Virus record (IMG/VR): IMGVR_UViG_3300038321_000091
Span: 1-31,781 of that record
Source: a virus
Taxonomy: Duplodnaviria; Caudoviricetes
DNA length: 31,781 nucleotides
Direction: 5' to 3' (one strand)
Every line of letters begins with the position of its first letter. Within the stretch, counting starts at the first letter, position 1. The notes under the pieces were generated by a model that did not search any database, was not told the DNA's origin, and was given only the letters and a program-made list of their open reading frames with translations. The position numbers were made by a program, and so were the translations under genes. Below are positions 2,027 to 19,859 of the stretch, piece by piece.

Positions 2027-2214
2027 GGACAAAGAAAAGTGTATTCATGCAAATGCATGATCGGGAAAGAACTAACAAAGGATCCTTTAATGTAGGCCTT
2101 CAAAAATTATTCTATCTAGCCGATATGTCAAATAAACGCAAACTTGTGGGTGCTTTCCCTGATTTTTTTGGGGAAGAGGTGCCAGAGTTTGGTATAGAAA
2201 AACCCACTAAATAG
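2023..2214 (+). CDS. Hypothetical protein
   Basis: ATGA-coupled 63-aa ORF in the early operon. Confidence 0.6.
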   Translation: MRTKKSVFMQMHDRERTNKGSFNVGLQKLFYLADMSNKRKLVGAFPDFFGEEVPEFGIEKPTK

Positions 2215-2223
2215 ACCCGATGA

Positions 2224-2343
2224 AGGAAGAAGTAGCGAGGGTGACTCGGCTGGTGGGCAACCGGAAACCGGCCTGATGAAGATGAAGATTGATGATTGAG
2301 AGTTAAGGGTTGCCGTGAAACTTCCTATCCCGCGAAAGCGGGA
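2224..2343 (+). ncRNA. Candidate structured RNA in the transposase leader
   Basis: Nested pairings AGGAAG 2224-2229/CTTCCT 2321-2326, CGAG/CTCG 2236-2248 and GGCAACC 2256-2262/GGTTGCC 2308-2314, plus a GAAA-tetraloop hairpin at 2328-2343. Confidence 0.4.
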
Positions 2344-2381
2344 ATTAAGCAATCAGAGACACTTTGGATAGACAGAGGGAT

Positions 2382-2425
2382 TTCCCGGATGGCATACACA
2401 CAAGGTTCGAGTCCTTGGCGGGAGC
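2382..2425 (+). ncRNA. tRNA-like mini-element 1 (acceptor-like stem + T-arm)
   Basis: TCCCG 2383-2387 pairs with CGGGA 2419-2423; T-arm CAAGG-TTCGAGT-CCTTG at 2401-2417; no D or anticodon arm. Confidence 0.55.
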
Positions 2426-2437
2426 TAAACGAAACAA

Positions 2438-4414
2438 ATGGAATACTATAATAACATACTTTGCGCAGAGGCGAGATGGCTAACTGAAAACGACATCATG
2501 GATGCTGATCAGTATAAATATCTTGCTAAAACAAAGCAAATATACGTTGCACGACGCGGATGTCGTGGTACCCCTGCGCTTGTTGCGTACGATAGTATTC
2601 CCGACCGGTTCAAGCCTGAAATAAAAAAGGCACTGGGTTGTGATCCGTATGCGGCGGCAAAGGTTTCACAAGTTGAGATCAGGATCGAGCATAATGCTGA
2701 AATAAGTAAATTTTTTGAGGAGGACTTCGTGTTGGCCGACGGTCGAAGCCTGCCGAAAGAAACCAGGGCCGAATATTATGCTAACGCAATAGTTCTCGAG
2801 GCAATAGGAAAACTTCTGTCGGACAAAAAGCAAACACGCAGATCGAGAGGCGGCCGTGTTTCGCATAGGTGGAAAGATATCGCCGAGGGTGTTCAGGAAC
2901 TGGACAGAACAAAATACCCGCACACACTCCCGGCAAATGAACGTCGTTTGGAGAACAGGTTTAAGCGGTACAAAAAAGAGGGACTGGAAAGCCTGATACA
3001 TAAAAACTTCATGAACAAACATGCGGCAAGCATTGACGACGAAATAAAAGAAAGTTACATGACTGAACTACTTGCAAGCCCTAAAAACTTCGATAACGCT
3101 CAGGTTTCGCAATTATACAACATGATCGCTGGTCAAATGGGATGGAGGCAAATAACACCCGCAACCGTTGCCGTTTGGCGCGATAAGCTGGATACAACAA
3201 TTTTTGCAGGCCGCCGTGGTTCTGTTGCGTTCTCTAACAAAAAAACAATGCAAGTCAAGCGTTCAGCACCCACGGCGCCGCTTCTATACTGGACGTTGGA
3301 CGGTTGGGATGTTGAGCTGCTATATCAGAAATTTGAAAACGGTAAAACAACCTATCACCACAGGCCCACGGTTGTAATCGTGTTGGACGCCTGCCTGAAA
3401 TACCCGGTCGGATATGCCATCGGCACACACGAAACGCCGGAACTGACACAGGCCGCACTCAGGAACGCGGCTCGACACACGGCGGAACTTTTCGGATCGA
3501 TGCACAAGGCACACCAGATTCAGAGCGACCGTTATGCCATCAAAAAGCTTACTCCATACTATGAAACAATGGGTGAAAAGGTGACACCGGCCCGGGCGAA
3601 AAATGCTAAGGCAAAGATTATAGAACCTTATTTCGGATCGATTAACAAAAAATGGTGTCAGCTTTTGCCAAACTGGAGCGGATTCGGCATAACAAGCGAC
3701 CAGGACAAACAGCCAAATGTGGAGTACCTGAATAAGTACAAATCTGGCTTCCCGGATTTTGACGGAGTTTGCCGGCAAATTGAAATGATCATTTCCCGTG
3801 AGCGTGAGGAGAAAATTGAGCGATACATGGAACTGTGGCAGGGGATGGATGCAAGCCGAAAAATCGAACTCTCGGCGGAAAGTTATTTACTCCAGTTCGG
3901 CGAAACAACCGGACGGACAAATCTCTTACAAGGATCCGGGCTTCATCCAACAATATTGGGACAGCGTAGGGATTACGATTGCTTTGATATCTCTTTCCGT
4001 GATCATGGTTCAATAAAGTGGAAGGTGATGTATGATCCCGACGATCTGTCGAAAGTTCTTGCCGTAAATGAAAACGAAACGCTACGCTACATGCTGGAAG
4101 AAAAATACATACAGCCGATGGCGCTGGCAGACAGAAAAGACGGTGACAGCGATCAGCTTCAACGCATACGCCAGTACAACAGGGAACTGGAAGAAACGGT
4201 TATTGACAGGCGGTCGAAATCGGGCAACATTGTTCGTGACCACTTTTCGGAAAGCAGCATGATTGAGGATGAAACACTAAAACGACTGCTTATTACCGAC
4301 AGTAACGGACAGCATAAGGATGTGAAAAGCCGTTCGCGCACACGTAAGCAATTGCCGGCGGTCGAGTATGCCGAAGTTCAGGAAGAGAGAGGCAGTATTT
4401 TAAATAGATATTAA
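2438..4414 (+). CDS. Mu-like DDE transposase (MuA equivalent)
   Basis: 658 aa; candidate catalytic triad in WTLDGWD, IQSDR and AKIIEPYF; located directly upstream of an AAA ATPase. Confidence 0.92.
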   Translation: MEYYNNILCAEARWLTENDIMDADQYKYLAKTKQIYVARRGCRGTPALVAYDSIPDRFKPEIKKALGCDPYAAAKVSQVEIRIEHNAEISKFFEEDFVLADGRSLPKETRAEYYANAIVLEAIGKLLSDKKQTRRSRGGRVSHRWKDIAEGVQELDRTKYPHTLPANERRLENRFKRYKKEGLESLIHKNFMNKHAASIDDEIKESYMTELLASPKNFDNAQVSQLYNMIAGQMGWRQITPATVAVWRDKLDTTIFAGRRGSVAFSNKKTMQVKRSAPTAPLLYWTLDGWDVELLYQKFENGKTTYHHRPTVVIVLDACLKYPVGYAIGTHETPELTQAALRNAARHTAELFGSMHKAHQIQSDRYAIKKLTPYYETMGEKVTPARAKNAKAKIIEPYFGSINKKWCQLLPNWSGFGITSDQDKQPNVEYLNKYKSGFPDFDGVCRQIEMIISREREEKIERYMELWQGMDASRKIELSAESYLLQFGETTGRTNLLQGSGLHPTILGQRRDYDCFDISFRDHGSIKWKVMYDPDDLSKVLAVNENETLRYMLEEKYIQPMALADRKDGDSDQLQRIRQYNRELEETVIDRRSKSGNIVRDHFSESSMIEDETLKRLLITDSNGQHKDVKSRSRTRKQLPAVEYAEVQEERGSILNRY

Positions 4415-6648: not shown

Positions 6649-6918
6649 ATGGGAGCACAAAAAATACTTTTTCCCGAACTGGAAAAACACAAGTCCAGGA
6701 AAGACCGTAACCGGGACCCGTGGGGACGTTACGACACCCGGGAGCGCTTTAAAGCGTATGAACAAAAGATTGAGCGGCTGCGTGCAACAATCAAATACCT
6801 GACGAGCGTAACGACGGCGAGTGCCGATGCGATCCGCAAGCGGGATATGGAAATTGAAAAATTAAAGAATATCATAAATAACCGCGATAATTCAGATTAT
6901 CGCTTAAAAGAAAGATAA
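6649..6918 (+). CDS. Hypothetical coiled-coil protein
   Basis: Tightly packed, charged 89-aa ORF in the operon. Confidence 0.65.
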   Translation: MGAQKILFPELEKHKSRKDRNRDPWGRYDTRERFKAYEQKIERLRATIKYLTSVTTASADAIRKRDMEIEKLKNIINNRDNSDYRLKER

Positions 6919-6920
6919 TT

Positions 6921-7448
6921 ATGGCAAAAAGAACAAAAAAAGTGATCCACAGCGGGATCACGTCGGAACAAATGGAAACGGCGATAGCCGAATATGCAGC
7001 TGCAGATGCCAAACTGGCAAAGATCAACGCCACAATGGACGAGCAGTTTACCCGAATCAGGGAAAAATATCAGGATGATATCACGAAGCTGACTGATACC
7101 AAGGACAAAAATTTTTCGATTGTACAGGCTTTCGCAATGGAGAACCGGGACGACCTGTTTGCAAAGAAAAAATCGATGGACAGCGCACACGGAACCTTCG
7201 GGTTTCGCACAGGAACGCCAAAGCTGAAGACATTGCGCGGTTTTACATGGGCATCCGCACTGAACCTGATCAAAGCGTTTCTGCCCGGGTACGTTCGTAC
7301 CAGTGAGGAGCCGGCGAAAGACAAGCTCCTTGCCGACCGTGAGTTGCCGGAAGTGGCTGGAAACCTCGAAAAGTGCGGCATCGAAGTGGTTCAGGATGAA
7401 ACGTTCTTTATAGAACTGAAAAAAGAAGAATCAGCCATTGCCGTATGA
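6921..7448 (+). CDS. gam: Mu Gam-family host-nuclease inhibitor (DNA end protection)
   Basis: 175 aa; long N-terminal helix followed by GTFGFRTGTPKL and GIEVVQDETFFIE, typical of Gam. Confidence 0.88.
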   Translation: MAKRTKKVIHSGITSEQMETAIAEYAAADAKLAKINATMDEQFTRIREKYQDDITKLTDTKDKNFSIVQAFAMENRDDLFAKKKSMDSAHGTFGFRTGTPKLKTLRGFTWASALNLIKAFLPGYVRTSEEPAKDKLLADRELPEVAGNLEKCGIEVVQDETFFIELKKEESAIAV

Positions 7449-7963: not shown

Positions 7964-8401
7964 ATGTACAACTGGTTTGAATGTAAAGTGCGTTACGACA
8001 AAACGCAGGAAAACGGAGTGATAAAAACCGTTACGGAGCCTTATTTGGTGGACGCCCTCTCCTTTACCGAGGCGGAGGAACGGATTGTAAAGGAAATGGA
8101 ACCGTTTATCGGCGGCGTGTTTTCAGTTTCCGATATCCGGCGCAAAAAGTTCGCTGAAACTATTTTAAATGAAAATGGCGACCGTTATTATAACGCCCGA
8201 CTGGCATTCATCACGCTTGACGAGAAAAGCGGATCGGAAAAGAAAACAGCCGTCAATATGCTCGTACAGGCTTCGTCCCTGAGGGAGGCCATGGACATTG
8301 TTGAAGGTGAAATGGCAAAGACGATGGTTGATTACGACTTTATCGGTATTACTGAAACCGCTATTGTAGATGTTTTTCCCTATTCTGAGCAACCGGAATA
8401 A
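7964..8401 (+). CDS. DUF4494-like protein
   Basis: WFECKVRYDK...EPYLVDALSFTEAE and FITLDEKSGSEKK, recognised as this Bacteroidota family. Confidence 0.85.
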   Translation: MYNWFECKVRYDKTQENGVIKTVTEPYLVDALSFTEAEERIVKEMEPFIGGVFSVSDIRRKKFAETILNENGDRYYNARLAFITLDEKSGSEKKTAVNMLVQASSLREAMDIVEGEMAKTMVDYDFIGITETAIVDVFPYSEQPE

Positions 8402-8445
8402 TCCACGACGGTTCTTGGGCGGGGTTCGATTCCCCGTCGTGGAGC
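8402..8445 (+). ncRNA. tRNA-like mini-element 2 (7-bp acceptor stem + T-arm)
   Basis: TCCACGA 8402-8408 pairs with TCGTGGA 8437-8443; T-arm CGGGG-TTCGATT-CCCCG at 8420-8436; an 11-nt linker replaces the D and anticodon arms. Confidence 0.65.
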
Positions 8446-8476: not shown

Positions 8477-8587
8477 ATGAACGATTTAGCAAGTTTTGCA
8501 CTCATGTTCGGATTGCTATCGGTAATAATATCTCTTTGTTTAGTTGTAGCCATTAAAGAAGCGAAAAACTCAAAAAACCATGATTAG
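8477..8587 (+). CDS. 36-aa single-TM peptide (not in the ORF track)
   Basis: MNDLASFALMFGLLSVIISLCLVVAIKEAKNSKNHD*; AT-rich leader; overlaps the next start codon. Confidence 0.55.
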   Translation: MNDLASFALMFGLLSVIISLCLVVAIKEAKNSKNHD

Positions 8588-8843
8588 CGAATTTTCAAGT
8601 AAAGTAGGCATTCCTGTAGAGGAAATTCTCGGCAGGAGCCGCGAGCGAATGGCTGTCGATGCAAGACATTTATACTGGCGGCTGCTCCGCGACAAGAAAA
8701 ATTTTACGGTAACGGTCATAGCCAGGCTTAACGAAAGAACACACGCCACGGTTGTTCATGGACTTAAAAAAGCTGATGACCTGCTGGAGACCGGGGATGC
8801 GTATACGGTAAAAATGTGGGATAAGATTAAGGATATTCTGTAA
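8580..8843 (+). CDS. DnaA C-terminal-domain-like HTH protein
   Basis: EEILGRSR...DARHLY...IARLNERTHATVVHG matches the Bac_DnaA_C pattern (R-D-H-T-T-V-x-H). Confidence 0.8.
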   Translation: MISEFSSKVGIPVEEILGRSRERMAVDARHLYWRLLRDKKNFTVTVIARLNERTHATVVHGLKKADDLLETGDAYTVKMWDKIKDIL

Positions 8844-18584: not shown

Positions 18585-19859
18585 ATGAAAAAGATTTTAG
18601 CACTGATGTTTAACCTGGTTGTCGGGGCCACCCTGGCAGCGGTGACAGGTGGCGGTCTGATGGCCGCAGTGATAGCGGGGGGAGTATTATCTCTGATCCC
18701 GAAAACAATTACCGGCTCTTTGCCGATGGCCATACAGGTAGAAATATGGGAAAAGGACATTGTGGAGGGCCTGTTTGCTGACAACGCGTTTTTGAATTTT
18801 GCCTACAACGCTGATCAATATGTGCTACAGGGGAAAGTAGTTCATATCCCACAGGCGGGAGCATCCGCAGGCACTTCCGTTAACAGGTCGGAACTTCCAG
18901 CAACTGTGACTAAGCGTACAGACGTAGATATAACGTATGCGATCGATGAAATTACTTCCGATCCGGTATTGATACCCGATGCGGACACTGTGGAATTGAG
19001 TTATAGTAAGCGAACCTCCGTTACTGAGCAGATGCGTAAAAATATGTATGAAGCTTCTGCCTTAAACATGCTATACAGATGGGCACCTTCAGCAGGTGAT
19101 AGAATGATCCGCACGACCGGTACTGCTGTTGCCGCTCATCTTCCGTCTGCTACAGGCAGCAGGAATGCACTTACACTTGATGATGTCAAGAAAGCGCAAA
19201 AGCAATTCAATAAGGACAATGTACCATCTGCAGAGCGTTACTTGATGGTTGATGCCGAGATGTACGATCAGTTAACGAATGACATGACTGCGAACCAGAG
19301 CCGAGATTTCCTTGCGGCATATGACGAGAAAAATGGTATTCTGGGTAGGATCTATGGATTCAACGTTATCATGCGTTCACAGGTGATCCGCTATACCAAT
19401 GCTGCTACTCCCGCTAAAAAAGAGTGGTCTGCCGCAGGCGCGTCAACTGATAATGCAGCAGCTATCTGCTGGCAAAAACAGAGCGTAGAACGTGCACTGG
19501 GAGACGTGAAGTTCTTCGAAAAATTAGGAGATCCTCAATATTATGGTGACATATATTCTGCCCTGATTCGCCTTGGTGGACGTATTCGACGCAACGATAA
19601 CAACGGTGTCCTTGCGATTGTGCAAGCAGTAGTTGTAGCAACGACCTATACAGTAACGTTCAGTGTTGACGGCGGCTCAGAAGTCACTGCGCAGACAGTT
19701 GAGTCTGGCAATAAGGCAACCCAGCCTACGGCACCGACTAAAACTGGATTCACATTTGACGGCTGGTACGGTGAAGCAGGATTAACAACGCTTTATGATT
19801 TTAATACTCCTGTAACCTCTAACGTAACGTTGTACGCCAAGTGGACAGCTGAAGGATAA
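18585..19859 (+). CDS. Major capsid protein with hydrophobic N-terminal leader and C-terminal Listeria-Bacteroides repeat (InlB-B/Flg_new-like) domain
   Basis: Follows the protease gene; EIW, GKVVHIP, VPSAERY and GRIYGFNV capsid-like motifs; C-terminal YTVTF...PTAPTKTGFTFDGWY...YDFNTPVTSNVTLYAKW. Confidence 0.85.
   Translation: MKKILALMFNLVVGATLAAVTGGGLMAAVIAGGVLSLIPKTITGSLPMAIQVEIWEKDIVEGLFADNAFLNFAYNADQYVLQGKVVHIPQAGASAGTSVNRSELPATVTKRTDVDITYAIDEITSDPVLIPDADTVELSYSKRTSVTEQMRKNMYEASALNMLYRWAPSAGDRMIRTTGTAVAAHLPSATGSRNALTLDDVKKAQKQFNKDNVPSAERYLMVDAEMYDQLTNDMTANQSRDFLAAYDEKNGILGRIYGFNVIMRSQVIRYTNAATPAKKEWSAAGASTDNAAAICWQKQSVERALGDVKFFEKLGDPQYYGDIYSALIRLGGRIRRNDNNGVLAIVQAVVVATTYTVTFSVDGGSEVTAQTVESGNKATQPTAPTKTGFTFDGWYGEAGLTTLYDFNTPVTSNVTLYAKWTAEG

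Follow-up and report, generated by a model that had tools for sequence, protein, structure and literature searches.

Why would a phage place a tRNA-like fold directly in front of its transposase gene? We asked this of the whole 31,781-nt stretch of DNA analyzed here (the window), which is a Mu-like transposable Bacteroidales prophage. A repressor with an S24 domain is encoded on the minus strand (705-1535) and is followed by small early ORFs, the transposase, a MuB-type ATPase, Gam, DUF4494 and Mu-type head genes. The MuA-like transposase (2438..4414, plus strand; phrog_310 match, E 2e-35) shares 42% identity with the MuA-like transposase of Elizabethkingia phage TCUEAP3. A transposase 99% identical to it occurs within a Bacteroidales genome (lineage L001), and relatives reach Flavobacteriales, hankyphage p00 and Porphyromonas phages. 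The window also encodes a capsid-like protein with a C-terminal Listeria-Bacteroides repeat domain (18585-19859).

Two tRNA mimics in the early operon

The segments 2382..2425 (element 1) and 8402..8445 (element 2), both on the plus strand and 44 nt long, are tRNA mimics in the early operon, each with an acceptor stem, a short GG-bearing connector, a T-arm, a discriminator and C74. The acceptor stem of element 1 is short (five pairs plus one G-U; one position short) and is formed by TTCCCG (2382-2387) and CGGGAG (2419-2424), which ends in the discriminator-like G2424. Its 13-nt connector (2388-2400) contains a GG (2391..2392, plus strand) that is likely the equivalent of D-loop G18-G19 docking on the T-loop, and the T-arm CAAGG-TTCGAGT-CCTTG follows (2401..2417, plus strand). 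C2425 and a further 12 nt precede the transposase ATG at 2438.

Element 2 abuts the stop codon of the DUF4494 gene (7964..8401, plus strand). It has a 7-bp acceptor stem, TCCACGA (8402-8408) with TCGTGGA (8437-8443), an 11-nt connector with GG (8409-8419), the T-arm CGGGG-TTCGATT-CCCCG (8420-8436), G8444 and C8445. A 36-aa hydrophobic ORF (8477..8587, plus strand) begins 33 nt past the acceptor stem and overlaps the start of a DnaA-C-type HTH gene (8580-8843). The common tRNA-like architecture that the sequence-only reading described for the two segments is thus present in the letters.

The elements share several traits with tRNA genes, namely the acceptor stem, a T-arm whose loop fits the consensus, the discriminator and a 3' trailer of host type. 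We nevertheless rejected a tRNA gene as the reading, as there is no D or anticodon arm and the 11-13-nt connector stands alone in their place. ARAGORN called no tRNA gene in the window, and an Rfam scan of the window returned no tRNA match at E<=1 and nothing relevant.

The window has no strict T-arms besides those of the two elements; 200 dinucleotide shuffles averaged 0.1, and one of them reached two. A covariance model built without element 2 recovered it at E 7.8e-6, and apart from the two elements nothing in the window scored below E 0.1. Predicted folding gave a different picture. Element 1 is not unusually stable (z-score -0.40; element 2, -2.41), and in context its acceptor pairs have probabilities of 0.01-0.08 against 0.6-0.99 for the T-hairpin. 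In element 2 the acceptor stem is populated (0.86-0.99), and the T-stem (0.01-0.03) is outcompeted by an alternative hairpin. The folding models used disregard coaxial stacking and tertiary contacts, and we therefore examined relatives instead. Thermodynamics alone lends the tRNA-like fold no support, so the case for it is comparative.

The element recurs in related prophages

Four transposase searches, two pattern scans and four annotated records yielded 206 loci with a transposase match. These formed 118 transposase clusters at 90% identity, of which 106 were kept and 12 without a usable start were dropped. Across these 106 lineages (960,637 bases), strict T-arms numbered 56 in sense and one in antisense, and ten shuffles gave 0-2. 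At least one strict T-arm was present in 51 of the 106 lineages, or 57 once variants found only by the model were added; L108 was left out as a likely chance match. The sequence-only reading had staked its proposal on the element not being missing from this position in related prophages. A strict T-arm element begins 30-60 nt before the transposase start codon in 25 of 103 lineages, and an element lies at most 140 nt before the transposase in 35 of 103 when the model-only variants are counted with the strict scan. The proposal thus withstands this check.

What separates acceptor stem and T-arm can be as short as about 10 nt or as long as an entire tRNA body. About 25 elements are minimal, with a connector of nearly fixed length (10-13 nt). 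At the other extreme, lineage L018 has a complete tRNA (called Gln-CTG) in the same pre-transposase slot, and lineage L178 keeps a D arm with a proper anticodon arm absent. Whole, half-reduced and minimal forms thus occupy one slot with differing acceptor sequences, which vary between groups. The minimal class and a host tRNA-Asn (L230) have U1-A72, G73 and a CAA trailer in common. The elements probably descend from tRNAs that lost their D and anticodon arms.

In a FastTree of 99 transposases (7 of the 106 lineages were excluded for short matches or short upstream DNA), the element forms alternate among one another and are patchily distributed. Ten changes on the tree are needed for the minimal form, and 58 of the 99 lineages lack an upstream element by the scans used. 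The pattern would be consistent with repeated capture, reduction, exchange and loss of elements. Apparently whole tRNAs also occur inside early operons at 6828-6899 of L077, 7650-7723 of L084, 2148-2233 of L088 and 5967-6040 of L018 (anticodons CAT, CAT, GCT and CTG; identified by eye or with ARAGORN).

The elements are found in Bacteroidales and in Flavobacteriales phages. Among cultured phages, family members are located in hankyphage p00 (about 1767-1849; a longer form that precedes an early gene), TCUEAP3 (1781-1824 and 6899-6954) and a Porphyromonas phage (2774-2845). In 401 Bacteroidales genomes the strict pattern matched four times in three genomes; one match is the L001 prophage and the other three lie beside transposase homologues. 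Neither Mu nor D3112 has a strict T-arm in its first 12 kb, a sample of two that is too small for claiming restriction to Bacteroidota. A covariance-model search of five host genomes scored 150 candidates per genome and is no measure of absence. A generic viral scan (3 of 64 parts) yielded whole tRNA genes for the most part; short-connector forms made up 9 of 137 sites, some with no Mu marker nearby. T-arm elements, some with short connectors, stand directly before the terminase large subunit or unknown genes in L300, L357, L323, L301 and L348, where there are no Mu markers nearby; these may represent this device in further groups of phages.

Stems, a probable elbow contact and the 3' signature are conserved

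Pair counts and the covariance model were derived from 21 of the 25 aligned minimal elements; the four with a 7-bp register, element 2 included, were set aside. Across the 21 elements, 96.1% of cells pair, and two-sided changes affect 8 of 11 pairs (4 of 6 in the acceptor stem). None of 500 shuffles reached this level of covariation, and slid registers gave at most two such pairs, except for three at +2. T-stem covariation arises partly by construction, because T-stem pairing was a scan criterion, and the acceptor stem is therefore the fairer test.

The connector GG is invariant in all 25 aligned minimal elements. In 33 distinct elements collected with a pattern that fixed G19 and left the loop free, C56 is always present and the connector changes together with the T-loop: G18 goes with U55 in 28 of 29 cases and A18 with G55 in four of four. 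This co-change is as predicted for a D-loop/T-loop contact formed without a D stem, and it suggests that the element folds into an elbow. The A18/G55 variant is also found in Riemerella prophages and may represent one event, spread by exchange. Our literature search returned nothing usable on selection experiments with D/T-loop variants, so the A18-G55 geometry is one that we infer.

C74 follows the discriminator in 55 of 55 elements (two registers allowed, chance 0.24 per site; L108 dropped). The discriminator is a purine in 52 of the 55, and CCA is encoded in only one. Host tRNA genes, represented by 30 distinct flanks from two Flavobacteriales genomes, have C74 in 30 of 30 and an encoded CCA in 1 of 30. 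The elements therefore retain the 3' signature of a host pre-tRNA, which takes no part in pairing.

The constant feature is a place before a start codon

Two of the 55 elements were omitted for want of both distances. Of the remaining 53, 46 have a start codon at most 41 nt past their end (distance: median 22, minimum 13). Spacing to the upstream stop codon is less strict, with 24 of the 53 inside the same limit (median 47; p 0.02). No ORF is this near to any of the 30 host tRNAs. The spacers between element and start are 54% A, and Shine-Dalgarno words occur in 5 of 48. The frequency of A rises to 0.73-0.79 at -11 to -14 in the 48 spacers, a peak to which the CAA trailer adds. Initiation in Bacteroidota is marked by low structure and upstream adenines (PMC6847099, excerpts), and the element spacers agree with this signature.

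The suggestion that the two elements bracket the transposase-to-DUF4494 block does not generalize. In the 67 lineages for which both sides were covered, an upstream element occurs in 27, a downstream one in 14, both in four and neither in 30. The constant feature of the elements is their place just 5' of a start codon, and each element therefore likely serves the gene behind it. The context appears polycistronic, in that a tRNA-like fold with a conserved T-arm adjoins a gene end and the gene order points to co-transcription.

Other structures in the early leader

In some lineages the pre-transposase slot is filled by a bare stem. In others (L034, L082, L094, L096, L106, L134, L137, L150, L186, L023 and L061) an unrelated hairpin with a GGA(A/G)AGAC loop, often in multiple copies, occupies the slot 33-44 nt before the transposase ATG. 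This pattern has 31 sense and no antisense matches, some of them inside genes, and had no Rfam match in the loci scanned. An unrelated hairpin in the same slot fits a job that any stable structure can do.

A structured non-coding leader of about 180 nt lies upstream of element 1 (window 2205-2380, plus strand), with counterparts at 1863-2042 of L031, 1320-1499 of L059 and 2790-2965 of L001. Its folding z-score is -2.8 over window positions 2215-2350, and two-sided changes affect 3 of 43 pairs among four sequences. It carries a hairpin with a GGGCAA loop and a GNRA hairpin (2328-2344), the strands of which could swap with the acceptor stem of element 1. We dropped a hammerhead candidate at 2215-2345 (CTGATGA and GAAA words), which has no stem II and no Rfam match. 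In L031 and L059 the RNA sits between two mini-elements; in the window an ORF end takes the place of the upstream copy.

A leftward TAnnTTTG box, the Bacteroidota -7 promoter, precedes 8 of 56 elements at position -14/-15 (background 0.014 per 32 nt), with examples at 1800-1815 of L031 and in L061, L068, L135 and L194. It also directly precedes 11 of 80 element-less transposase starts, and it possibly drives a gene on the opposite strand or transcription antisense to the early leader. Given its fixed distance in these eight, the connector may partly be constrained as DNA, but not in the window, where the box is absent at both elements and a promoter reading was rejected. Sigma-70 and terminator scans remained at chance level. 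An RT-17 RNA in a related prophage (L097, 8688-8779) scored above the gathering threshold.

Predicted processing by host tRNA enzymes and its alternatives

What do the elements do? In our analysis, the likeliest mechanism (probability about 0.5) is that host RNase P and RNase Z excise the mimic; the early transcript would be split, and the transposase mRNA would keep a 13-nt A-rich leader. RNase P would cut the 5' end of element 1 at about 2382-2383, and RNase Z would cut after the discriminator at about 2424-2425. Of the two resulting transcripts, the transposase mRNA would begin with the A-rich spacer (2425..2437, plus strand), which would then be its entire 5' leader and would likely set its translation and lifetime. 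The effect is more likely to be the freeing of an unstructured initiation region; the predicted unpaired fraction of the start region rises from about 0.7 to 0.83 after the 3' cut. The tRNA-punctuation-like system proposed from the sequence is supported as the likeliest mechanism, though not in its bracketing form, and the stabilization of mRNA and tuning of transposase translation that it envisaged are putative.

RNase Z faces the stacked acceptor and T helices, and other tRNA elements are largely dispensable to it (PMC3790967, excerpts). Bacterial RNase P uses the contact between D and T loops and a 3' RCCA, and tolerates acceptor/T hairpins (PMC4919922, excerpts). RNase Z was found in five of five host genomes and RNase P RNA in four of five, some of which are drafts; in the L001 host, which carries the 99%-identical prophage, the L15 GGU of RNase P RNA is intact. 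The elements retain what the processing enzymes read, the acceptor stem and T-arm, and the enzymes are present in the hosts, so a processing signal is the best reading. Against it, the element is dispensable and patchy (the scans found no upstream copy in 58 of the 99 tree lineages, and none on either side in 30 of 67), and the acceptor stem of element 1 is short and thinly populated in predicted ensembles.

The main rival is an uncut structural leader, a compact fold that stays in the mRNA, insulates the start region, and blocks nucleases or aids polymerase read-through, possibly via a host protein that binds tRNA elbows. We consider this possible though rather unlikely. In its favour, no element comes closer than 13 nt to the start codon, which fits a structure that has to stay clear of the ribosome footprint; a second hairpin family can take the slot; stem-only remnants exist; and translation initiation in Bacteroidota relies on upstream adenines and little structure (PMC6847099, excerpts). 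Such a leader alone leaves C74, the discriminator, the T-loop consensus and the co-change of GG and T-loop unexplained. An intermediate between it and processing by both enzymes would be a cut by RNase P only, with the stem kept as a protective cap. Less likely than the uncut leader, and in our view improbable, is a product acting in trans, either the released mini-tRNA or an RNA excised between two copies, as a decoy for tRNA-binding or tRNA-attacking host proteins or as an immunity RNA like P1 C4. The shape does resemble the tRNA-like domain of tmRNA, and two copies flank the conserved, structured RNA of about 180 nt in L031 and L059. The window has that RNA as well, but its upstream flanking copy is missing; stems and connectors vary freely, the anticodon is absent, and a trans role makes the close tie to start codons unnecessary. 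The best complements of the element connectors within the window (connectors only were searched) are 9 and 7 nt. Phage C4 antisense RNA is matured by RNase P (PMC11143913, excerpts), which speaks for such a product.

Decay offers a further explanation, in which phage tRNA genes, currently functionless, are partly preserved by the overlapping leftward promoter. The continuum from whole tRNA to remnant, the patchy distribution and the box at -14/-15 in 8 of 56 elements would fit. We hold it to be quite improbable, given that compensatory changes affect both stems in minimal elements, that connector length is nearly fixed at 10-13 nt, that C74 is present in 55 of 55, that the elements occur in phages of both Bacteroidales and Flavobacteriales, and that the window copies have no promoter box. 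Finally, integrating phages duplicate the T-arm and acceptor 3' strand of tRNA genes, and the elements could be such att-type 3' tRNA fragments left from an integration site. This reading is already largely refuted: the phage is transposable (MuA, MuB, Gam), and the elements are internal to the early operon, with their own pairing 5' strand and covariation.

Returning to processing by the host enzymes, a broader and more tentative proposal is that Bacteroidota transposable phages turned tRNA genes of their hosts into a 44-nt elbow mimic for mitochondria-style punctuation by RNase P and RNase Z, with short leaders that license translation in a phylum lacking Shine-Dalgarno signals and paired copies that excise small RNAs. 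If this is true, few natural tRNA look-alikes in bacteria would be smaller than the mimic. Should the cuts prove real, they would amount to tRNA punctuation of mRNA in a bacterial virus and would add a layer of control over transposase, the dose of which drives phage replication and host mutagenesis. The elements would then also offer minimal substrates of natural origin for RNase P and RNase Z, including a naturally swapped elbow contact, and the engineering of Bacteroides and Flavobacterium would gain a 44-nt part for RNA processing.

Relation to known systems

We consider the element real, conserved and uncatalogued in Rfam. Our analysis points to a variant of a familiar type of device, seen here in a new setting and with a predicted mechanism. 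Its closest analogues are the t-elements and acceptor-stem-like stem-loops of plant mitochondria, which likewise have a conserved GGTTCRANYCC T-arm upstream of genes; there, RNase Z cleavage gives rise to the 5' end of cox1 mRNA, and 3' ends are generated by RNase P (Forner et al. 2007, PMC1920247, excerpts). The plant elements belong to an organelle, are about 70-75 nt and cloverleaf-like in the mapped cases, and leave leaders of tens to hundreds of nt (PMC1920247, excerpts), whereas the phage elements have a bacterial host, 44 nt, no D or anticodon arm, a start codon within 13-41 nt and a cleavage that is predicted. Metazoan mitochondrial tRNA punctuation and the MALAT1 and MEN-beta ends likewise use a tRNA or tRNA-like signal for RNase P and RNase Z in a long transcript, but these systems are eukaryotic, punctuation uses working tRNAs, and the MALAT1 element sets the 3' end of a non-coding RNA (PMC3790967 and PMC4919922, excerpts).

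The C4-type RNAs are similar to the elements in being RNAs of temperate phages from the early or immunity region that use a host tRNA-maturation enzyme, which for the element is a prediction. Their products differ in being trans-acting antisense RNAs with target-matching loops, whereas the elements track start codons. Rfam C4 families had no match in the window and 17 related loci. The CI RNA of P4 is also a phage substrate of RNase P. Others are the C4 antisense RNA of P1/P7 and phage M3 RNA (PMC11143913, excerpts). Phage tRNA genes are represented by the whole tRNA-like forms in the same slot (L018, L088), from which the window's elements differ in having no anticodon arm.

The tRNA-like domain of tmRNA consists of an acceptor stem, a T-arm and a stemless D-loop bearing GG, all features common to the elements. 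We rejected a tmRNA reading, as there is no mRNA-like domain or tag frame with pseudoknots, no G3-U70 (the alanine identity pair) in the window copies and no CCA; the Rfam tmRNA model matched just the 18-nt T-arm of a relative, at E 0.37.

Rfam scans of the window, 17 short related loci and 6 further loci returned nothing relevant. A full-text literature search, outside the coverage of which lie most subscription papers, found no such element described in phages. The word 'tRNA' is absent from the hankyphage paper, the Porphyromonas phage paper treats tRNAs only as integration sites, and the excerpts of PMC8776804, PMC5737381, PMC7609411 and PMC10690425 name no such element. The tables of Fremin and Bhatt include anonymous candidates near Mu or DUF4494 genes, for example HMP2_3238 and HMP2_1193, and the element may already be listed, unnamed, in such tables.
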